Sequence record: DRR723986_6897
Reading direction: 5' to 3' (one strand)
DNA: 64,000 bases
Positions 4,298 through 62,297 of the stretch are shown piece by piece (positions within the stretch are counted from its first letter, which is position 1; every line of letters starts with the position of its first letter). The notes beneath the pieces were generated by a model that worked only from the letters and a program-made list of their open reading frames with translations, was not told the DNA's origin and ran no database searches. Made by a program: the position numbers and the translations under genes.

Positions 4298-6490
4298 ATG
4301 CTGAAAGCCCCAAAAAACATTACTGCCCCCAAAGCACCCACCAAACCGCACACATTCAGCCATCACGGCGACACGGTTTCCGACCCCTATTTTTGGTTGA
4401 AAGACCCCGGCTATCCAGATGTAACCGACGAGGGTGTTTTGAGCTATTTGAAAGCGGAAAACGATTATTACGAATCCGTAACGAAAGCCGACAAGCCACA
4501 GATTGAAGCACTGTTCGCGGAAATTAAAGGCCGCATGCGCGAAGACGACGAAGGCGTGCCATATAGCCGGGGCTGCTACGATTTTCGCTGGGCCTTCCAG
4601 CCGGGCAAGCAGTACCGCACATGGTATTACCGGGTCCGGGCAGAAGACCCGTATAATGCCAATAACTGGCCAGAAACATGGGACGTGTTGTTTGACGAGA
4701 ATGTGGCCGCCGAAGGGCTGGAATATTTCAAGCTGGGCAGCCTTGCCGTCAGTCCCGATGGGCGGTTTATGGCCACAAGCGTTGATGACAATGGCTCTGA
4801 GCGTTTTACCGTGACGGTGAAAAACCTGGAAACTGGCGAAATGCTCGCAGAGGAACTTGGCGAAACATCCGGCGAAGTGGTGTGGGCAGGTGACAGCCAG
4901 ACATTTTTCTATGTGAAAGTTTCAAAAGAGTGGCGACCGTACCAAGTGCGCGGTCATATTTTAGGCACCGATGCGGTCGGCACTGACGACCCGATTATTT
5001 ATGAAGAATCGTCTTCCAGTTTTTTCATTCACATCCACGAAACATCGTCGGAAGACTATTTGGTGATCCGGGCGGCGGACCATGTGACCGCGGAAAATCA
5101 TATTTTGGATATGAAAAACCCAAGTTTGTTTCAACAAACAGCGAGTTTATCGCCAAAAAACGCCAGTTCGACTCTAATTTTTGACAGTAAAAATCTGATT
5201 TGTGCCAGCCCACGACGCGAAAATCATGATTATTCCATTGATCATGCGGTCGAAGGCTTTGTGATTCGTTCCAATAAGAATCACATGAACTACGGTGTTT
5301 TCATCGCACAAGGCGTGCGTGAAGAAAGTTGGGTGGAACAACTATCTGGCAATGAAACCCGCTATATCCGTGGTGTTCAGGCGTTTGACTTTTTCACCGC
5401 CGTTGAGGACCGCATCGACGGGCTAGACCAGATAACTATCCTGTCACCTGACGGAACAGCTTGCCAAATCCCCATGGATGAAGCGGTTTATGAAGTTGGC
5501 TTGGCCAACAATACTGAGTCCGGGCAAGGCTTCATCAGGCTTGGTTTTTCCAGCCTTCTCACCCCGCCAACCGTGCTGGATGTGCCGGTCAGCCTTGCTT
5601 CTGGCATGGTTAGCCCCGGTGAGCCGACCATTAGAAAAGTACAGGAAATTCCGTCTGGGTATGACCGTAGCATGTACCGGTCAGAGCGATTGATGGTTAC
5701 CGCCCGCGATGGTGCAAGAGTGCCGGTCAGTCTGGTTTACCGCGCTGACTGGCAGAAAAACACTAATGCCCCCATGCACTTATACGGATACGGCGCTTAC
5801 GGCCTTGGCATGAGCCCGTCTTTTTCTGCGCCGCGACTTTCCTTGCTGGACCGTGGTTTCATTTATGCCATTGCTCATGTTCGCGGCGGCGACGAATTGG
5901 GCAAAGGCTGGTATGAAAATGGTAAGCTGGAAGCGCGCACCAACACCTTCAACGACTTTGTTGATGTAGCAAAAAGCCTTACAGAACAAGGCTATGCAAC
6001 GCCTGGTGGCATCAGCATTTCCGGCGGCAGTGCAGGCGGCGAGTTGATGGGGGCGGTGCTGAACCAGGCACCAGAACTATTCAAAGGCGCGGTATTGCAT
6101 GTGCCATTTGTTGATGTTTTGAACACCATGCTTGATGCTGACTTGCCGCTTACCCCTATTGAATGGCCTGAGTGGGGCAACCCCATTGAGGACGCTGGTG
6201 CTTACCAAAACATCAAGGGCTATTGCCCCTACACCAACATGGAAGCCAAAGCTTATCCGCCGATGTTTGTCACCGGCGGGCTCAATGATCCTCGGGTTAC
6301 CTACTGGGAGCCTGCTAAATGGACCGCCAAGATGCGGGCGCTGAAAACTGATGACAATCTCTTGGTGATGAAAATCAACATGGGCGCGGGCCACGGCGGC
6401 AAGTCAGGTCGGTTTGAGCGCTACTATGAAGTGGCCGAGGAATATATGTTTCTGCTCAATTGCTTTGAAGGTGGCTCAGACAAGACCTAG
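4298..6490 (+). CDS. ptrB: Oligopeptidase B / S9A peptidase
   Basis: DPYFWL, YGYGAYG, HVRGG, GGSAGG nucleophile, DPRV, AGHGG. Confidence 0.92.
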   Translation: MLKAPKNITAPKAPTKPHTFSHHGDTVSDPYFWLKDPGYPDVTDEGVLSYLKAENDYYESVTKADKPQIEALFAEIKGRMREDDEGVPYSRGCYDFRWAFQPGKQYRTWYYRVRAEDPYNANNWPETWDVLFDENVAAEGLEYFKLGSLAVSPDGRFMATSVDDNGSERFTVTVKNLETGEMLAEELGETSGEVVWAGDSQTFFYVKVSKEWRPYQVRGHILGTDAVGTDDPIIYEESSSSFFIHIHETSSEDYLVIRAADHVTAENHILDMKNPSLFQQTASLSPKNASSTLIFDSKNLICASPRRENHDYSIDHAVEGFVIRSNKNHMNYGVFIAQGVREESWVEQLSGNETRYIRGVQAFDFFTAVEDRIDGLDQITILSPDGTACQIPMDEAVYEVGLANNTESGQGFIRLGFSSLLTPPTVLDVPVSLASGMVSPGEPTIRKVQEIPSGYDRSMYRSERLMVTARDGARVPVSLVYRADWQKNTNAPMHLYGYGAYGLGMSPSFSAPRLSLLDRGFIYAIAHVRGGDELGKGWYENGKLEARTNTFNDFVDVAKSLTEQGYATPGGISISGGSAGGELMGAVLNQAPELFKGAVLHVPFVDVLNTMLDADLPLTPIEWPEWGNPIEDAGAYQNIKGYCPYTNMEAKAYPPMFVTGGLNDPRVTYWEPAKWTAKMRALKTDDNLLVMKINMGAGHGGKSGRFERYYEVAEEYMFLLNCFEGGSDKT

Positions 6491-51359: not shown

Positions 51360-53066
51360 TTAGCCAGGCACCACATCGAATGCAACAGTTGTCCGGCGCT
51401 TGCCGGCTTCAATAGGCACGGTGCCATGCAGCATGTAGGAAGGAAACAGCACCAGGCGGCCTGGCACCGGTTTAACAAGCCGGTGGGGGCCTGTGTTGTT
51501 GGGGTCGAAGTATGCGTCCCCAAATTTTAACCAGCCTTCGTGGTTCTTATCGTCTAATTCTGGCGGTACTTCCACATAGTAAACCGAGCTAATCCAACCG
51601 GAGGTGTGCACATGGTCATGGTGATAGCCTTCATCGCTTAGCTGCACACTCCAAGACCCTGAAAACTCAAAGGCGTCAGTAATTCGGTTGCGAAATTCAG
51701 CGGGTCCAACATCGCGCAAATGCTGGATATATTGATTGATATATCCTTTTAGTTGATTTTCCAGCTGGTTAATTTCATTGCTTTTTTTGTTGAAAAGCAT
51801 GCCGTGCGTTTGGGTGCCGTGGACAAGCGTTTGATCAATCGGTGCTGTTTCGGCCAAATGGTGTTCTTGCAGTGCCTTCAGCAAAGCGGCGTTGAAGTCT
51901 GCCTGCGTGGAAAAGCCAGACGGCGGGTCCACTTCATAAACCTGAACCAGGTCTTCACAGTTATTAACGCGCTCGGCTTCGGCGGCATTAACGTGAATGT
52001 TCGCTGTTGATAAGAACATCAAGCATTCTTGGTCTGCACTATCAATGGCTTTGCATTCGGACAAAACCTTTACCGCACGTTCATAATGCTGTGCACCGAT
52101 TAAAGTGCGACCGTATGCTTTCAGCATGTTCACGTCGGTCGGGTCCAACTCGTAAGCATTTGCATAAAGCGGCAGGGCATCGAAGCTTGGGTCTAATTGC
52201 TGTTTTACATTTGCCAGCTCTGCATAAACCCGCGCGTTGGGGCCAAATATTTCCAGGCACTCTTCCAGTTGCTTTGCTGCGTCATCCAGCTTGCCTGCTA
52301 GAATGCGAAAATAGGCAAACCGTAATCGCATGATCAGCAAGCTGGGCAATGTTTCAATTGCGCGTTCGAAGCTCTTTAAGAAATTGGTATGTTCGCCGTG
52401 TTCCCAAAGGGCCTTGTTAAGGGTGTCGTGGGCATCAATGTAATGCCGCTTGATCACTACAGCCCTTTCATAATGGGTAAGTGCTTTACTGATATTGCCA
52501 GCATCATAATATGCGTTGCCGGCCAGCAAGTAGGCCTCGGCGTCTTTGCAGCCCGCGTTCAAGCATCTTTCGTGACATAATATGGCATCGTCCAATCGCC
52601 CCATTAGGCGAAGCACTTCACCCAGATACGACAAGCCGATAGCGTCTGGTTGCATTTTTAATGCAGCTTGAATGATCGACCCTGCGTTGTCCAATGACCC
52701 CACCGACATCATGGCAAGGCCAACAATTAGAAGAAGGTTAGGGTTTGTGCCAAAGTTTGTAGTGCTATCGTTAACAATTTTAATGGCTTCATCTGGGCGG
52801 TTGCAATATAGCTCGGCGCGTGCGGCGCAGGCTACATTCGTGAGAGAGCTTTTGTTTTCATTATAGCTTGCAAGCGCAACAGCAGAGGCCAAATCCCGCG
52901 CCTGAATATCAATGAGCATATCAATGAAGGCTTTATGCTCAACGGCGGTGGGCCTAAATGTGCCTTGCTTGAAGGTGGCTATTGCCTCTATTTCATGGCC
53001 ACGCCCAACAGCATGCAGCATACGCTGGCAACCTTCGGAAAAGTTACCGTCAAAAACCTGTTCCAC
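51360..53066 (-). CDS. TPR protein with C-terminal putative 2OG-Fe(II) oxygenase domain
   Basis: TPRs; WSV.L..GYH..HVH..GWISSVYYV, LVLFPSY..HGT, RTTVAFD. Confidence 0.88.
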   Translation of the reverse strand: MEQVFDGNFSEGCQRMLHAVGRGHEIEAIATFKQGTFRPTAVEHKAFIDMLIDIQARDLASAVALASYNENKSSLTNVACAARAELYCNRPDEAIKIVNDSTTNFGTNPNLLLIVGLAMMSVGSLDNAGSIIQAALKMQPDAIGLSYLGEVLRLMGRLDDAILCHERCLNAGCKDAEAYLLAGNAYYDAGNISKALTHYERAVVIKRHYIDAHDTLNKALWEHGEHTNFLKSFERAIETLPSLLIMRLRFAYFRILAGKLDDAAKQLEECLEIFGPNARVYAELANVKQQLDPSFDALPLYANAYELDPTDVNMLKAYGRTLIGAQHYERAVKVLSECKAIDSADQECLMFLSTANIHVNAAEAERVNNCEDLVQVYEVDPPSGFSTQADFNAALLKALQEHHLAETAPIDQTLVHGTQTHGMLFNKKSNEINQLENQLKGYINQYIQHLRDVGPAEFRNRITDAFEFSGSWSVQLSDEGYHHDHVHTSGWISSVYYVEVPPELDDKNHEGWLKFGDAYFDPNNTGPHRLVKPVPGRLVLFPSYMLHGTVPIEAGKRRTTVAFDVVPG

Positions 53067-53318: not shown

Positions 53319-55754
53319 TTAACGAAGTCGCGCAGCGATGGCGTTCAATGTTTCGCCAAGCGCTATAAGCCTTTCCTGTGTTTTAGCGTTTTCGCCTCCA
53401 GAAGCAAGGTCTGTAGCCAGTGCTTTCAATTGATTTGCAGCACGACGGTTACGATCACCGCTTTCAAGGCTGGCCTCAGAGTTATCAAGCGCCTCATTCA
53501 AGTTGGCAACATCAGCCTTTGTCAGGGCATTGCTGCGCTGAAGCTGGTCCATATAGGCGCGAGCAATTACCGGCTCGGCAGGCCAACTGACCGTGAATTG
53601 TTGCTGCGGGTTAAACACTTTCCCTTGGTCGGCAATCGTTGCGGCTTCAATTTCATTGGCGGTCAAATACTCGCTAGGTAGCAGGGCCATAACATCCAGG
53701 CCGCGCACAATTTCAGTGCCGTAAATTTTGCCCTTGTACCAATAGGTTGACCAGAAACCGCCGGTCACCAACACGTCTTCATGAATCGGTCCTCGGTCAA
53801 AGAAAGCAATTTCAACCGGGTTTGCAGAATCGGTGAAGTCAATCACAGACAGGCCGCCCTGGTACCAAGCTTGCACGAAGATGTCTCGGCCCGGTACTGG
53901 CAGCGCAGAACCATTATGCGCCACACAATTTTCAGTTTCTGACTGCGGAGCAGGCAACTTAAAGCGGCCTTTATATTCCAGCTTGCGATCAACGATGTCA
54001 TAGAACACATCAGCGCCCCATGTTTTAGGGTCATGCGCCAAGCAGCGCGGACGTCCGCCGCCGCCCCACTCGTCGGTAAACAATACCTTGGTGCCGTCAT
54101 TGTTGAAGGTGGCAGAGTGCCAATAAGCAAAACCGGGGTCTGTTACCGCGTCAATGCGGGTTGGGTTCAGCGGGTCAGAAATATCAAAGATAATGCCGTT
54201 ACCCGAGCAGGCCCCTGCGGCAATTTTGGCGGCTGGGAATACCGTAATATCGTGGCATTGGTCTGTTTCGCTGGTTTCCTGTGTGTTGTCACCGTGGTCA
54301 CCGCCTTGCCACAAACCGCCAAGCCTGCCGGTTTCGGGGTCTGCAAATACGGCTGGGCTGCTTACAATGCGAGACTGCGACGGGTCATCAACCGGAATTT
54401 CAATAACGTCAATGCGGAACAGAGCGGTTCTTTCATCACCCGGCACTCGGCCGACGCAGCCGGCCAGCTCCTCTTCGCTGCGCACAGAAGACGTGCCTGA
54501 GTTATAGACAATGATTTTGCCGTCTGTGCCTGGCCCGGACACAACCGAATGGGTGTGGGAGCCGCGGCATGTTTGCACCTGACCAACCTGCCTTGGTCGT
54601 CTTAGGTCGCTAATGTCAAAAATACGAAGGCCGCGGAAACGATCAGCACTGACATCTTCGCTGATACCTTGCAGGCCGCAATCAACCCGGCCGCGGGTCT
54701 GCTCCACTGACATGATCAGCAAGTCACCAACAATGGAGATGTCTCCTTGTCCGCCGGGGCAAACGACAGAACTATAGAGTTTGGGCATACCGTCATCTTG
54801 CAGTTGGTATACGTTGAACCCATGATAGCTGCCCACAACCAGTTTATCGCCAGCGAAGGCCATGTCGGTGTTGGAAAAGCTCATGAACGGCGAGCGTTCA
54901 CCGCGTTGAACTTCTTGTTCTTCGCCGCTCTCATCTGCATCGGTATCATCGGCTTCAATAACCGGGGGCAGGTCGGACGGATTGTTAGGGTCAAAAAATC
55001 CGGCAGGGCGGGGTAGCGTGGTCACAAGCTCAACATTCATTGCGGCCTCGCCCGCATCCCGGAACCCGGCTTTCAGGCCTGCGCGCGGATCATCTGACAA
55101 TCCAACCAGCAGTGTCGTCATGCGCTTGATTTCAGATGTTTGGTCGTTGGTAATGTCGCTAACAAATTCATACAAAATGGGATCGTAGGCCGAGCCAGAT
55201 TGACTTAGCAGGTCGTTCACCATGGTGATTGCGCCTTTATGGTGGGCAATCATTAATTCAAGAAACATACGGTCAAAATCGGTAGCAGTTGCCTCAGCTA
55301 ATGCTGCCATTTGCGCAGGAGAAGCCATGCCAGCCATATCATGTGACATGTGCATGGCGTGATGCGCGGTTGGTGTGGGTTTGGCCTCGCCGCGCGCTTC
55401 AAGCCACTCTTGCATAAATTTAATTTCGTCTGCCTGCGAGGCATCAATGCGTCCGGCGATATCAATCAGTTCTGTTGTATTGGTGCGGTCTGCGACGAGC
55501 GCAGCCATTTGCACAGCTTGGTTATGGTGCGGGATCATATCCTGCATAAAGCGCACATCGGCGCTGGAATAGCTGTTGTTGGCGATCTCAATGGCTTTTT
55601 TTGCATCAAGCGCTTGTGCGGGCTTGCCCGGCGCACCCGGTTGCACAATGGGTGCGTCCTGCGCTGCAGCCATGCCTGCGTGTGCCATTAACGCCATGCT
55701 AACAGTTGCAGTTAAACAATATTTGCGAAAACCGTTTGTTTGAAATCTGATCAT
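53319..55754 (-). CDS. Exported DUF305 + LVIVD-repeat protein
   Basis: FMQDMIPHHNQA, FLELMIAHHKGA; then GSHTH, CHDI, WHSA, CVAHN propeller region. Confidence 0.85.
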   Translation of the reverse strand: MIRFQTNGFRKYCLTATVSMALMAHAGMAAAQDAPIVQPGAPGKPAQALDAKKAIEIANNSYSSADVRFMQDMIPHHNQAVQMAALVADRTNTTELIDIAGRIDASQADEIKFMQEWLEARGEAKPTPTAHHAMHMSHDMAGMASPAQMAALAEATATDFDRMFLELMIAHHKGAITMVNDLLSQSGSAYDPILYEFVSDITNDQTSEIKRMTTLLVGLSDDPRAGLKAGFRDAGEAAMNVELVTTLPRPAGFFDPNNPSDLPPVIEADDTDADESGEEQEVQRGERSPFMSFSNTDMAFAGDKLVVGSYHGFNVYQLQDDGMPKLYSSVVCPGGQGDISIVGDLLIMSVEQTRGRVDCGLQGISEDVSADRFRGLRIFDISDLRRPRQVGQVQTCRGSHTHSVVSGPGTDGKIIVYNSGTSSVRSEEELAGCVGRVPGDERTALFRIDVIEIPVDDPSQSRIVSSPAVFADPETGRLGGLWQGGDHGDNTQETSETDQCHDITVFPAAKIAAGACSGNGIIFDISDPLNPTRIDAVTDPGFAYWHSATFNNDGTKVLFTDEWGGGGRPRCLAHDPKTWGADVFYDIVDRKLEYKGRFKLPAPQSETENCVAHNGSALPVPGRDIFVQAWYQGGLSVIDFTDSANPVEIAFFDRGPIHEDVLVTGGFWSTYWYKGKIYGTEIVRGLDVMALLPSEYLTANEIEAATIADQGKVFNPQQQFTVSWPAEPVIARAYMDQLQRSNALTKADVANLNEALDNSEASLESGDRNRRAANQLKALATDLASGGENAKTQERLIALGETLNAIAARLR

Positions 55755-55861
55755 TGGACGTGTCCCTTTAAACCTAAGTTTGACCCAGTTCACACGTTAC
55801 CCGATTTTGCCAAAAAGGCAAAAAGGATGGTGTTTAGCTTCTTGCTCGGCGCTCACTCCAT

Positions 55862-55904
55862 TTGTCCGGACAAGAAAGAGGGCGCATAATCTCGTGTCCT
55901 GACA
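55862..55904 (+). promoter_or_regulatory. Promoter bracketed by two TGTCC(G/T)GACA palindromes
   Basis: TTGTCCGGACAA 55862-55873 and TGTCCTGACA 55895-55904; TTGTCC-N17-CATAAT promoter geometry. Confidence 0.65.
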
Positions 55905-55984
55905 GCTTATTTCTCGCAAAATGTATTGCGGTTCAACATATTTGTTGCATCAAAAAATAAACGATCAAAACGCGAGGAAACAAA

Positions 55985-57127
55985 ATGAAAAAAGCAATGA
56001 CAGTCGCCCTTATGGGCGCAAGCCTCTTCAGTGGTGCTGCACAGGCATATAAGGGTATGGAAAACCTAAATATTGAGGCCATTTGCGCCAGCGAGGCCAT
56101 CGAATGTTTGATGAGCGATGCGGGCGTCGTGGTTGGTAGGCCCGGCTCAACAGCTGCATATTCAGCAGGCATCGATAGAGCCGCCGCTAGCTTTGAGCGG
56201 TTTTTTGGCAGTGAAGCACCTAAGGCGGCGGTAGTGTTGGGTGAAGTGGCAGATGCCGACATTCGTAGCAGTTTGTTGGAAGCTTATCCGGTTGTGTTGC
56301 CATGGCTCACCATTAAAGACCGCGAAGCTATGGTAGCTAGCGGTGTGCGCGCGGAGGTTTTGCGGCAATATCCTGATATTGACGAAGCAACGCTTGAGGC
56401 CACAGTGGCGCGGTCGGTGAAGGCCACCTTGAATGCAAGTAGTCCCGGTGCAGGTGCAGAAGGTGTCCATGGCAGTGGTGCGGATGATGTGCACCAAGGT
56501 GTATTCGCGCACGAGCTTGGCCATTTGTATTTCATTGAAACCTTCTGGCCGGAAGAGAATTTGAATGTGCTTGATACTCATGCAGGCGACGTATCCCGCT
56601 ATGCCGGCCCCGGTCCCGACTGGCTGGACGAGATGGCAGCCGTACTAATGGAAAATAAAGCGCTGACAAGGGGCAGGGAGGCTGGCCTTAAAACCGTTTC
56701 AGAAAGCGCTGATTTTGGCGCCATATGGCCGCTTAAAACTTACTTCACCATGGGTCATCCGGCGTTTGAGCAAGCTCGTGCTTTGATAGAAGCGCGACAG
56801 AAAACCGCCGCAGGCAGGGCACAAGGCAATGTGGTCATCCTGTCACGGGAGGACTTGAACACTCGCGATGATGGTCGCAACGCAGCAATGTTTTACTCAC
56901 AGTCTCGCGGGTTTGCAGACTATATGATTGAGACCACAAACAACGAGCAGATTTTTGCAGAAATTGCTAGGTATATTGCTGATGGCGCCAGCATGGAGAG
57001 TTGGCTACAAAAGTTTGGCGCATCGCATGGTCTAGTGAAAACCGTTCCAGCGCTTGAGGCTGATTTTCAGATGTGGCTAAAGGAACGATATAGCGACAGC
57101 GAAACTAGTTTGAATAGTCATACCTAG
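55985..57127 (+). CDS. Secreted putative zinc metallopeptidase (gluzincin-like)
   Basis: Signal peptide; AHELGH, PDWLDEMAA, FYSQS. Confidence 0.75.
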   Translation: MKKAMTVALMGASLFSGAAQAYKGMENLNIEAICASEAIECLMSDAGVVVGRPGSTAAYSAGIDRAAASFERFFGSEAPKAAVVLGEVADADIRSSLLEAYPVVLPWLTIKDREAMVASGVRAEVLRQYPDIDEATLEATVARSVKATLNASSPGAGAEGVHGSGADDVHQGVFAHELGHLYFIETFWPEENLNVLDTHAGDVSRYAGPGPDWLDEMAAVLMENKALTRGREAGLKTVSESADFGAIWPLKTYFTMGHPAFEQARALIEARQKTAAGRAQGNVVILSREDLNTRDDGRNAAMFYSQSRGFADYMIETTNNEQIFAEIARYIADGASMESWLQKFGASHGLVKTVPALEADFQMWLKERYSDSETSLNSHT

Positions 57128-57789
57128 TCGGGCTTTGATGCCTTGGTCGCCGTATCTGGCACAGTGAGCGCATCGATTAATCGGGCCAATCTGGCTTGGT
57201 CTTCGGTGCCGACATGAGACGGTATGCCAGCACGTTTTAAAAAGGCCCGGCGCTCCTTGGGCGTCAGGCCCGGTGGTATCACGATAACCTGTTCGCCTCT
57301 GCCGTCTGCGCGTTCCGGGTGGTCACCGCGCACCTCAATCAATACTTGAGCAAGGTTATCAACCTCACCAGCTTCAATGCGCCCATTGTCGTTTCGGTCA
57401 CCGGTTTTAAGTAGCCAGTCAATGGTTTCTTTATTGGCTGTATTTTCAGCATCTGCGGCTGTAATGGCACCGTCGTCATTTTGGTCAAAGTAGCGCACAA
57501 CCCGCTCCCCGGTGCTGGCGGGCCTAGTTTCTTGTTGAACTAGAAAGACACCGACCGCCGTTAGGCTGGCCGTTAAAACCAGACCCAAACCAATCACCAA
57601 CCATGTTCTGTTCGCCTCACGGCTATTCGGGTGCAGGACGCCGCCGATATAATTCCGTATGGCATGGCTTGCGGTGGTGCCTGCATTGCGGCAAGCTTCC
57701 ATAAATGCCAGTTTTTCCGTGTAGGAAACGCGCACCTCAATGGTTTCGCTTTTCTTCTCTGACCTAGTTGGTTTTGTGTCTTCGTTCAT
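57124..57789 (-). CDS. RHH-like domain + TM + EF-hand pair protein
   Basis: KKSETIEVRVSYTEKLAFMEAC...TASHAIRNYI; TM; DQNDDGAITAAD and DRNDNGRIEAGE. Confidence 0.75.
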   Translation of the reverse strand: MNEDTKPTRSEKKSETIEVRVSYTEKLAFMEACRNAGTTASHAIRNYIGGVLHPNSREANRTWLVIGLGLVLTASLTAVGVFLVQQETRPASTGERVVRYFDQNDDGAITAADAENTANKETIDWLLKTGDRNDNGRIEAGEVDNLAQVLIEVRGDHPERADGRGEQVIVIPPGLTPKERRAFLKRAGIPSHVGTEDQARLARLIDALTVPDTATKASKPD

Positions 57790-57930
57790 GGACAAAGTTT
57801 GTACCAACGAACCATTTGGTTGCCAAGGGTTGTTGGCGAAGACATGCAATGACACCCTGAAAATATGCCCTTTTGTTGTATACACTTTGTTACATCAATA
57901 TATGCTGTGCGTATATTTGAAGTAGGCGAG

Positions 57931-58785
57931 ATGAAAGACCCAACAATGCAAAACCATGTTGAACCAGACCAAGATGAAACATCATTGCAGGATGATGATC
58001 AGCAAGTTGCAATAGCCAAGCGAGTACGTCCTGCAGATGTTTATGATGCAATTCTTGAGGAAGGCGAGGAAGAGCTGGAACGCGGATTTGGTGCTCTATG
58101 GTGGTCTGGTATTGCCGCTGGTCTTTCAATGGGGTTTTCTGTCGTTGCATCTGCAGCTCTGGCCGCAGCACTTGGGCATGATGCTTGGGTTCATCCCATC
58201 GTGAGCATCGGCTACACAGCTGGTTTTATTATCGTCATTTTGGCGCGGCAGCAGCTATTCACGGAAAACACCATTACGGCACTTCTCCCGGTCATCACCC
58301 ATCATTCCTGGGCAACTATGATTCATATGTTGCGATTGTGGGGCATTGTGTTTGTGGCAAATATTGTTGGCGCAATTGTTTTTGCTTGGGCAACGCAATT
58401 GAATGCCTTGTTTGCACCAGAAATCAGAGCAGAATTCCTGATACTGGGAGAGCATCTATTTGAAAATTCACGCTTGCAAATGTTTGTTAAAGGCATTGCG
58501 GCAGGATGGCTTATTGCTGCATTGGTTTGGGTTATTCCATCTTTACAAGGGGGGAAGTTCTTGGTGATCATGTTTTTTACTTGGCTCATTGCGTTGGGCG
58601 GGTTTACGCATATTATCGCAGGTTCAATCGAGAGCTTTCACATGCTTTTTGTCGGCGCCATAACCCCAAATCAATTAGTCTTTGATTTCATGCTGCCTAC
58701 ATTGCTTGGCAATATCGTTGGCGGTAGTGCGATTTTTTCTCTTATCAGTTATGCACAGGTGCGCCGCGAAGTTGATGCATTATGA
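57931..58785 (+). CDS. Formate/nitrite transporter family protein (YfdC-like)
   Basis: EGEEELER, AAGLSMGFS, QLFTENT, HIIAGS, LLGNIVGG. Confidence 0.9.
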   Translation: MKDPTMQNHVEPDQDETSLQDDDQQVAIAKRVRPADVYDAILEEGEEELERGFGALWWSGIAAGLSMGFSVVASAALAAALGHDAWVHPIVSIGYTAGFIIVILARQQLFTENTITALLPVITHHSWATMIHMLRLWGIVFVANIVGAIVFAWATQLNALFAPEIRAEFLILGEHLFENSRLQMFVKGIAAGWLIAALVWVIPSLQGGKFLVIMFFTWLIALGGFTHIIAGSIESFHMLFVGAITPNQLVFDFMLPTLLGNIVGGSAIFSLISYAQVRREVDAL

Positions 58786-61574: not shown

Positions 61575-62297
61575 GTGAGCGACAATAAAAACACAAATGA
61601 TGCGATCGATCCGGATATCCTGTCGGCTCAGCATTCCAGCACGCTTTGCCAAGCCTGCGGTATCTGTTGCAGTGGCACGCTTTTCTCTTATGTGGACGTC
61701 AGCCCAAAAGAAGCAAAAGCCCTAATCGGCACATGCGTTACGCCTGTTAAAAATGACAAGGGCAAGCTGGCGTTTGACCTGCCCTGCAGCGCCCTTGAGG
61801 GAACCCGCTGCACCATTTATGACAAGCGCCCGACAGCGTGCCGCACTTATTTATGTGGCCTCACGAGAGGGGTGATGAACGGCAGTACAAGTCTTGAGGC
61901 CGCCACTGCTGCAGTTGCGGACATTAAAGCCAAGCGAGCATGGTTGTTGGAGAATGCGCCGCTGGATATTTTGCTAACATATGCTTTGCCAGCAAAAGGA
62001 AAGCCCACTGGGCGCGAGGCGGAAGTGCCCAAGTCTGCCACAGCAATCCTTGCAGCATTCAGCAGCACAAGCAGCCCATCACAAGCCGCTTCTGCGGCGT
62101 CAAAAGCGCCCCAATCGCTCAGGGTTTTATTGGCTGAACTTTATGGATGTTTCACGCGTAAGCAACAGGTTGAAGGGCTAAGTGCCTCGGATAAAACATA
62201 TATTGCTGCGGCCTTTTCCTATGCCAAAATTGCGGACCGCATGTTTGAGAAAACCCCGCTTTTGCGCACCTACGGCACGCTGGTGCAGCAGTTTTAG
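61575..62297 (+). CDS. YkgJ-like cysteine cluster (CxxCxxCC) protein
   Basis: CQACGICC, PC..L..CTIY..RP..CR.Y.C. Confidence 0.85.
   Translation: MSDNKNTNDAIDPDILSAQHSSTLCQACGICCSGTLFSYVDVSPKEAKALIGTCVTPVKNDKGKLAFDLPCSALEGTRCTIYDKRPTACRTYLCGLTRGVMNGSTSLEAATAAVADIKAKRAWLLENAPLDILLTYALPAKGKPTGREAEVPKSATAILAAFSSTSSPSQAASAASKAPQSLRVLLAELYGCFTRKQQVEGLSASDKTYIAAAFSYAKIADRMFEKTPLLRTYGTLVQQF

Follow-up and report, generated by a model that had tools for sequence, protein, structure and literature searches.

Calcium signaling in bacteria is poorly understood, and the known EF-hand sensors (EfhP and the Caulobacter CaBP) act indirectly. NikR is a ribbon-helix-helix (RHH) repressor that places two dimers on the same face of the DNA, at two half-operators set apart from each other, with metal occupancy controlling repression; the protein is soluble and cytoplasmic and senses Ni2+ via a C-terminal ACT-like tetramerization domain. 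In the RHH fold, which has strand-helix-helix topology over about 45 residues, a G-x-S/T-x-S turn opens helix 2. RHH domains are obligate dimers whose two-stranded antiparallel sheet inserts into the major groove, and their operators are short and either repeated or palindromic. For transmembrane transcription regulators (TTRs), the gene of a partner protein is often adjacent (ToxS, TcpH). A TTR is defined as a protein with a predicted DNA-binding domain and at least one transmembrane (TM) region (PMC10269533). The survey built on this definition reports 50,302 TTRs, and its supplement lists few of the RHH type (RHH_1, 10; Arc, 12; RHH_3, 1) (PMC10269533). All four EF-hand TTRs in the survey tables have GerE DNA-binding domains, and these tables hold no row with RHH and EF-hand together (PMC10269533). 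Here, we describe a regulator gene in a 64,000-nucleotide (nt) stretch of sequence record DRR723986_6897 (the window). Its product, P0001, joins a predicted RHH domain to a TM helix and an EF-hand pair, and its convergent neighbor encodes P0002, a secreted HExxH protein whose gene is preceded by two palindromes.

We propose, with a probability of about 0.6, that P0001 is a single-pass transmembrane transcription regulator acting on the paired palindromes before the P0002 gene. The observed pattern is far beyond chance, and comparative genomics supports the core interpretation. With an RHH domain and one predicted TM helix in one polypeptide, P0001 falls within the TTR definition. The initial annotation knew of no characterized example, and our literature search found no description of an RHH-TM-EF-hand regulator or of a Kordiimonas EF-hand, with membrane-anchored RHH proteins judged by the titles listed.

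Gene pair and candidate operators

The convergent gene pair lies within 55755-57930 of the window. The two genes and the elements before the P0002 gene are as follows.

57124-57789, minus strand: regulator gene P0001, 221 amino acids (aa), from the open reading frame (ORF) and its translation; the N-termini of homologs agree with the ATG at 57789
55985-57127, plus strand: convergent neighbor P0002, 380 aa, secreted, putatively zinc-peptidase-like protein (HExxH...E), from the ORF and its translation
55863-55872, no strand assigned: candidate distal operator, perfect palindrome TGTCCGGACA, overlapping the putative -35 TTGTCC (55862-55867)
55885-55890, plus strand: putative -10 CATAAT of the P0002 gene, tentatively assigned by a consensus scan
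55895-55904, no strand assigned: candidate proximal operator TGTCCTGACA, 32 bp from the distal one and overlapping the expected transcription start

The genes share 4 nt at their stop codons (CTAG, 57124-57127). From the sequence, a convergent secreted HELGH...WLDE protein had been noted, together with palindromes over the -35 of TTGTCC-N17-CATAAT and over the expected start; all of these are present, the palindromes at 55862-55873 and 55895-55904. The distal palindrome is enclosed by TTGTCCGGACAA at 55862-55873.

Within the window, three strand-matches to TGTCCNGACA were found, all at the two sites, versus 0.30 expected, and none of 100 shuffles reached three. When one mismatch was allowed, the count was chance-like (15 versus 10.4 expected). 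A genome scan gave seven loci, six from Kordiimonadaceae (L001 to L006) and one from Parvularcula maris (L007); operators and promoters were compared in seven sequences, namely, the window and L001 to L006. In the promoter alignment, 9 of the 10 positions of the distal site are invariant, and the site is exact in six sequences, with one mismatch in L003. The proximal site follows TGTCCnnnC(A/G), with TGTCC and the C at position 9 invariant; in L002, L003, and L005, it forms a perfect palindrome. The spacing between the two sites is exactly 32 bp in every sequence, and their positions relative to the start codon of the P0002 homolog are also kept in all seven (-108 to -122 for the distal site and -76 to -90 for the proximal site). 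The two sites hold 15 of the 25 invariant columns of this alignment, for which the mean column identity is 53%. In an unbiased search, the 10-mers common to at least six of the seven upstream regions (one mismatch at most) all overlapped the palindrome.

Over 147,440 nt, exact TGTCCGGACA occurs 10 times versus 0.13 expected, and the maximum in 200 shuffles was 2. Nine of these copies lie at promoters of peptidase-like genes and the tenth lies upstream of the P. maris regulator gene; none occurs elsewhere. The palindrome is found with a regulator homolog in seven of seven fetched loci, in agreement with the co-occurrence foreseen in the initial annotation. The promoter scan placed TTGTCC-N17-CATAAT at 55862-55890 with 9 of 12 consensus matches. 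No other sigma-70-like match occurs in the intergenic region upstream of P0002, and both operator sites overlap this one or its predicted start.

An RNA element in place of a DNA operator was rejected, as Rfam gave no match up to an expectation value (E) of 1 and RNAalifold gave 0 conserved pairs in the seven 5' regions. A further motif, TCT(C/G)G(C/G)A, is located at 55912-55918, 8 nt downstream of the proximal operator, and at an equivalent offset in L001 to L006; its T, T, and G are invariant, and it shows no conserved RNA pairing.

Upstream of the regulator gene itself, a different promoter-like pair was found.

57798-57826, minus strand: putative regulator promoter TTGGCA-N17-TACAAA, read by eye from ATG-anchored upstream sequences

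Its -10 ends 8 nt before the ATG, and a Shine-Dalgarno sequence is absent. A similar TTGnnn-N17-TAnAnA, ending 5 to 8 nt before the start, occurs in the window and in L002 to L006 (about 5935-6000) and not in L001. The pair was not flagged by the promoter scan and is free of the palindrome. Because the -10 ends so close to the start and no Shine-Dalgarno sequence is present, the arrangement suggests a leaderless regulator mRNA, probably constitutive. A TTTGTCC half-site had been reported directly before the regulator ATG, and it is indeed present at 57790-57796, between the promoter-like pair and the ATG. It is conserved in none of the six Kordiimonadaceae loci and was rejected as a conserved autoregulatory feature. 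In the 300 nt upstream of the regulator, no palindrome with up to two mismatches was found in the window, L001 to L003, or L006, and L004 and L005 gave only chance-like matches with two mismatches.

Domain structure of the regulator P0001

The predicted domains of P0001 were mapped as follows.

57634-57759, minus strand: predicted RHH DNA-binding domain, residues 11-52, near-invariant EKKSETIEVRVSY.EKLAFMEAC..AGTTASHAIR.YI
57535-57603, minus strand: predicted single TM helix, residues ~63-85, hydrophobic stretch WLVIGLGLVLTASLTAVGVFLV
57451-57486, minus strand: EF-hand loop 1, residues 102-113, DQNDDGAITAAD; D102 and D113 invariant and D106 at least 90% conserved (alignment A1)
57364-57399, minus strand: EF-hand loop 2, residues 131-142, DRNDNGRIEAGE; D131 and E142 invariant and N133 at least 90% conserved (A1)
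57127-57312, minus strand: C-terminal helical region, residues 160-221, with conserved IPPGL..ER; P172, E179, and R200 at least 90% conserved (A1); predicted periplasmic

The N-terminal strand-helix-helix, the single TM segment, and the two EF-hand loops that had been read in 57124-57789 are all found at those places. In the translation, the N-terminus contains ETIEVRV, SYTEKLAFMEAC, and TASHAIRNYI. A homology search returned 35 proteins at E ≤ 1e-3, and the three with organism names are all from Kordiimonas. Alignment A1 consists of 34 sequences, with P0010 and P0038 omitted from the 35 homologs; alignments A3, A5, and A6 are hand-picked subsets of the homolog lists. In A1, 25 of the 27 invariant columns fall within residues 11-45 (EKKSETIEVRV..EK.AF..AC...G.TAS..IR), at a whole-protein identity of 30 to 86%. 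An exhaustive HMMER search extended the family to 275 representatives at E ≤ 1e-3, many of which align only over residues 9 to ~115-150. The Hyphomonas and Henriciella relatives carry no annotation beyond EF-hand protein, and the others none beyond EF-hand domain-containing or hypothetical.

When the N-domain profile A6 (20 sequences) was searched against PDB, the best match was the RHH antitoxin DinJ (9lew_A; E = 4.9e-5) over profile positions 10-52. Sub-threshold Pfam matches among the 20 A6 members were to RelB (14), RHH_1 (8), RHH_10 (5), RHH_9 (5), ParG (4), and NikA-like (2). The isolated N-domain of P0001 matched NikA-like at E = 0.021, still under the gathering score. The AlphaFold2 (AF2) model of P0001, built on 83 sequences, has a mean predicted local distance difference test score (pLDDT) of 86.6. 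In this model, the N-domain is extended at 11-22 and forms helices at 23-36 and 40-52 with a turn at G37-T-T-A-S41 (pLDDT 82-97). Foldseek with the whole model matched mainly through the EF-hand region and returned no RHH structure, and an Atlas feature search with the N-domain returned nothing usable. The predicted N-domain is RHH-like in its strand-helix-helix order and in its profile match to a known RHH protein; the fold proposed at the outset is borne out by the DinJ match, the weak Pfam RHH families, and the extended segment with two helices.

Three known classes were considered and rejected for P0001. For the ToxR/CadC family, there were zero matches to Trans_reg_C or another winged helix-turn-helix domain up to E = 1, and the N-domain is RHH-like. 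A type II antitoxin (RelB/DinJ) is at odds with the TM helix and EF-hand pair and with the neighbors, which are the secreted HExxH protein and a formate/nitrite-family transporter. For a single-pass anti-sigma factor, the NCBIfam match (E = 0.053, 13.5 bits versus a cut-off of 100) covered the TM region only, and no sigma gene is adjacent.

AF2 predicted one continuous helix at residues 56-87, spanning the hydrophobic stretch. In all 34 A1 sequences, this region is hydrophobic, and its sequence is not conserved. Because the RHH domain must reach DNA and basic residues precede the TM helix, the topology is probably N-in/C-out. Both EF-hand loops are canonical 12-residue loops, of the pattern with acidic ligands at positions 1, 3, 5, and 12 and Gly at position 6, and their positions 1 and 12 are invariant in the 34 sequences; position 12 of loop 1 is Asp, not Glu. 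The pair is placed at residues 93-146 by AF2. The family profile A3 matched PDB calmodulins at a whole-sequence E of ~1e-18, and Foldseek with the P0001 model gave calmodulin, troponin C, and CIB as the best matches (probability 0.99, E only ~1e-2). By profile and model, P0001 carries a canonical calmodulin-type EF-hand pair that may bind Ca2+. Further helices were modeled at 177-216. Region 160-221 is specific to the Kordiimonadaceae subfamily, and distant relatives align only over ~9-150.

The neighboring protein P0002

From its sequence, P0002 has a Sec-type N-terminus (MKKAMTVALMGASLFSGAAQA), HELGH at 176-180, and DWLDE at 212-216; a signal peptide and a disulfide are predicted likewise. 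Its 88 homologs are all "hypothetical" and none has a Pfam domain; the named ones are from Kordiimonas, Hellea, Brevundimonas, and Erythrobacter. Residues C34, C41, H176, E177, H180, Y206, D212, W213, D215, E216, E223, and others are invariant in 64 aligned relatives. In the AF2 model (pLDDT 88.5; predicted template modeling score 0.86), the HExxH motif and the downstream Glu lie within predicted helices 165-187 and 212-221.

No family in Pfam or NCBIfam matched P0002 at threshold, and its family profile gave 0 matches in PDB. Foldseek returned nothing significant, with weak matches to the peptidase domains of LTA4H, IRAP, M61, and collagenase (E ~1 or above, template modeling score ~0.3). Five of the 64 relatives weakly matched Peptidase_MA_2 (best E = 4e-4), and P0002 itself did not; an Atlas feature search pointed to DUF1570, M9, M61, and MA_2 clusters. 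Like the MA-clan gluzincins (Peptidase_MA_2, M1/LTA4H, M61, and M9), P0002 has HExxH and a downstream Glu, within a W..E motif invariant in its family, and the weak fold and feature resemblance points to these families; P0002 differs from them in the lack of any significant match. In our reading, P0002 represents an undescribed family of zinc-peptidase-like proteins, is secreted or periplasmic, and has putative peptidase activity.

Conservation of the gene pair and its neighborhood

In six of six Kordiimonadaceae loci, a P0002 homolog is convergent with and directly downstream of the regulator gene. The 4-nt overlap of the stop codons is present in six of the seven sequences (the window and L001 to L005). 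The neighboring genes are not the same in all loci, and the two-gene module of the window is inverted with respect to the DUF305 gene. Because the gene pair and the operators persist while the neighbors change, they behave as a unit. Since a terminator cannot fit between the convergent genes at a 4-nt overlap, the transcripts must overlap at their 3' ends, and target and regulator may affect each other through antisense effects or transcriptional interference.

The P. maris locus (order Parvularculales) encodes a 222-aa RHH-TM-EF-hand protein, with an exact palindrome 104 to 113 nt upstream of its own start codon. There is no peptidase-like gene at this locus, and the similarity to P0001 covers residues 9-65 only. 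At 5155-5867 of the same locus, two ORFs come directly before the palindrome and the RHH-TM-EF-hand gene: first one that is PIN-domain-like and then a small one resembling an RHH antitoxin. The small ORF contains a palindrome copy with one mismatch, 103 bp upstream of the perfect one. When P0001 and the distant member P0080 were searched against plasmids by tblastn, no match was obtained.

The genes on both sides of the pair in the window are the following.

53319-55754, minus strand: left flank, 811-aa protein with a DUF305/CopM-like N-terminus (Pfam E = 6.8e-44)
57931-58785, plus strand: right flank, formate/nitrite-family transporter (Pfam E = 1.9e-48)

The nearest relatives are from Kordiimonas (Alphaproteobacteria, Kordiimonadales). 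The initial annotation had extended the possible control by P0001 to the divergent DUF305 gene, and this part is not upheld by the comparison. Only the window has the DUF305 gene divergent from P0002. In L001 and L002, it lies upstream of the regulator in the same direction; in L003 and L004, it is separated by kilobases; and L005 and L006 have no such gene within 6 kb, so the linkage is not conserved. Weak matches to LVIVD and choice-of-anchor-B-like families (Pfam/NCBIfam) were found in the C-terminal part of the 811-aa protein. The protein is secreted and consists of a DUF305/CopM-like metal-binding domain joined to this large C-terminal part, the weak matches of which are beta-propeller-like; it is 76 to 86% identical across four Kordiimonadaceae loci and adjoins the module in some genomes, on varying sides. 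Counterparts of a 568-aa ORF (51360-53066, minus strand) and a 240-aa CxxCxxCC protein (61575-62297, plus strand) are located close to the module in L001, L003, and L004, in differing order and orientation, with likeness judged by eye from the ORF N-termini. The neighborhood of these two ORFs is shuffled around an intact regulator-peptidase unit.

Proposed mechanism and alternative explanations

From the conserved, phased, and specific sites, we infer that P0001 physically binds DNA through its RHH domain. In the proposed mechanism, the cytoplasmic RHH domain would dimerize while tethered by ~10 residues to the TM helix, and the EF-hand pair and the helical C-terminal domain would face the periplasm. 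One RHH dimer is expected per 10-bp TGTCCGGACA site, because a perfect 10-bp palindrome fits the two-fold symmetry of the dimer. Because 32 bp corresponds to about three helical turns, both sites would lie on one face of the DNA, which would suit two dimers both approaching from the membrane. The sites lie over the putative -35 and the expected transcription start, and their occupancy would most likely repress the P0002 gene. Repression is the more likely sign of regulation because the sites overlap the sole sigma-70-like match and its predicted start. The signal would most simply be Ca2+, whose binding at the periplasmic EF-hands may alter the stability of the dimer or tetramer and thereby change operator binding.

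A number of observations weigh against parts of this proposal. Promoter matches of the type found before P0002 are at chance level for the region (2 found versus 2.2 expected), and in relatives the position of the P0002 -10 is an A/T-rich, poorly conserved hexamer. The Pfam and NCBIfam matches of P0001 itself are all under curated cut-offs (NikA-like, E = 0.14), and its EF-hand_8 score is 22 bits versus a cut-off of 28, which many relatives exceed. DSSP assigned zero beta-strand to the monomer model, as would be expected of an RHH sheet that forms only in the dimer. Outside Kordiimonadaceae, the locus comparison consists of a single locus (L007). In addition, the named relatives of P0001 are marine, and the Ca2+ concentration of seawater is ~10 mM. 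For EfhP, a dissociation constant of 13.7 uM for Ca2+ is given (PMC9132961). Since the seawater level is far above this value, the EF-hands in these marine relatives may be constitutively loaded, and thus structural rather than sensory.

Most RHH regulators are repressors, which counts against the opposite sign of regulation, in which the tethered RHH protein would recruit RNA polymerase from the membrane in the manner of ToxR, TcpP, and CadC, using a promoter downstream of the proximal site. The location of the sites, 76 to 122 nt from the start codon, could accommodate such a promoter, and the poor conservation of the scan-assigned -10, with the scan itself at chance level, agrees with it. 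However, the seven aligned sequences contain no consistent -35/-10 pair downstream of the proximal site, and the only consensus promoter in the intergenic region of the window is the one that the sites overlap. Activation is unlikely in our view, even with the characterized single-pass TTRs named in the survey (ToxR, TcpP, and CadC; PMC10269533) being mostly activators. A structural role for the EF-hands with a peptidase-linked signal is a serious rival, if a decidedly unlikely one. Here, the signal would be proteolysis or partner binding, with the HExxH protein or its substrate or product acting on the C-terminal domain of the regulator as a co-component or in a feedback loop; the RHH domain might finally be released or destroyed. 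The convergent pairing in all six loci and the recurrent stop overlap (six of seven sequences) fit this, as does the conservation of region 160-221 only in the subfamily that has the peptidase-like neighbor; the Parvularcula relative lacks both similarity in that region and the peptidase-like gene. Marine relatives and the high Ca2+ of seawater likewise disfavor simple Ca2+ sensing. Yet the invariant ligand positions of the EF loops fit functional metal binding equally well, and the peptidase activity of P0002 is putative, with no family match at threshold. Complex prediction for regulator residues 88-221 with mature P0002 (24-380), run without alignments, scored 0.00 and 0.00 and is no evidence either way.

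It is highly improbable that the palindromes serve another regulator or a non-regulatory role while the RHH-like domain makes protein contacts in the manner of an antitoxin or anti-sigma factor. The closest RHH similarity is to the antitoxins DinJ and RelB, and the NCBIfam anti-sigma match exists, although very weak (E = 0.053, 13.5 bits versus 100). Nevertheless, the palindrome accompanies the RHH gene in two ways: Kordiimonadaceae have it at the promoter of the peptidase-like gene, and in Parvularcula it precedes the RHH gene. No toxin or extracytoplasmic function sigma gene is adjacent, and the near-invariance of the predicted strand and the N-terminus of helix 2 parallels that of the DNA sites. 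With 0 conserved RNA pairs and no Rfam match, the palindromes do not resemble an RNA element either. Repression by P0001 at the paired operators is the reading that we prefer. A bolder version, which is tentative and which we would sooner doubt than accept, is a family-wide periplasmic Ca2+-to-DNA one-component pathway in marine Alphaproteobacteria (Kordiimonadales, Parvularculales, and Hyphomonadaceae). All members would read TGTCCGGACA via the invariant strand, and in Kordiimonadaceae the peptidase would act on the C-terminal domain of the regulator, yielding a Ca2+-gated, self-resetting proteolytic switch.

Comparison with known systems

If our proposal is correct, a DNA-binding domain and an extracytoplasmic EF-hand pair are combined in one protein for which both the 10-bp operator and the target gene are defined, and this provides a minimal, directly testable pathway from Ca2+ to transcription. 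In the bolder version, P0001 would be the first transcription factor in bacteria to sense Ca2+ by its own EF-hands and the first characterized membrane-tethered RHH regulator. RHH, a fold that requires dimerization, would join the repertoire of membrane-tethered regulators, which raises the question of whether a periplasmic ligand can control DNA binding simply via dimerization across the membrane. Because its N-domain is under Pfam thresholds, a Pfam-based TTR screen would miss the P0001 family; it is invisible to such censuses, its members being annotated "EF-hand domain-containing" or "hypothetical."

RelB and DinJ antitoxins, which include the best profile match of the P0001 N-domain (9lew_A), are small, soluble, and paired with toxins, whereas P0001 lacks a toxin neighbor and includes a TM helix and an EF-hand pair. 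NikR is alike in fusing an RHH domain to a metal-binding sensor, but in P0001 the sensor would be an EF-hand pair on the other side of the membrane. EfhP of Pseudomonas aeruginosa (PMC9132961) is a periplasmic EF-hand protein described as linking external Ca2+ to transcription, as proposed here for P0001, and CaBP of Caulobacter vibrioides (PMC13171946) is an alphaproteobacterial extracytoplasmic EF-hand protein described as doing the same for Ca2+. As described there, both are stand-alone EF-hands that lack a DNA-binding domain and act through other regulators, whereas P0001 joins both functions in one polypeptide. The supplementary file 2 of the TTR survey lists four GerE (LuxR-type helix-turn-helix)-TM-EF-hand proteins, single-pass, 232 to 257 aa long, and seemingly uncharacterized (PMC10269533). 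These entries suggest that a second DNA-binding fold is coupled in a like manner to an EF-hand outside the cytoplasm. P0001 shares the one-component logic described for ToxR, TcpP, and CadC, in which one TM helix connects a DNA-binding domain in the cytoplasm to a sensor in the periplasm. Those regulators, as described, carry an OmpR-type winged helix and are mostly activators, whereas P0001 has an RHH domain, a tether of ~10 residues, and an EF-hand sensor, and thus adds a variant to the transmembrane one-component regulators.

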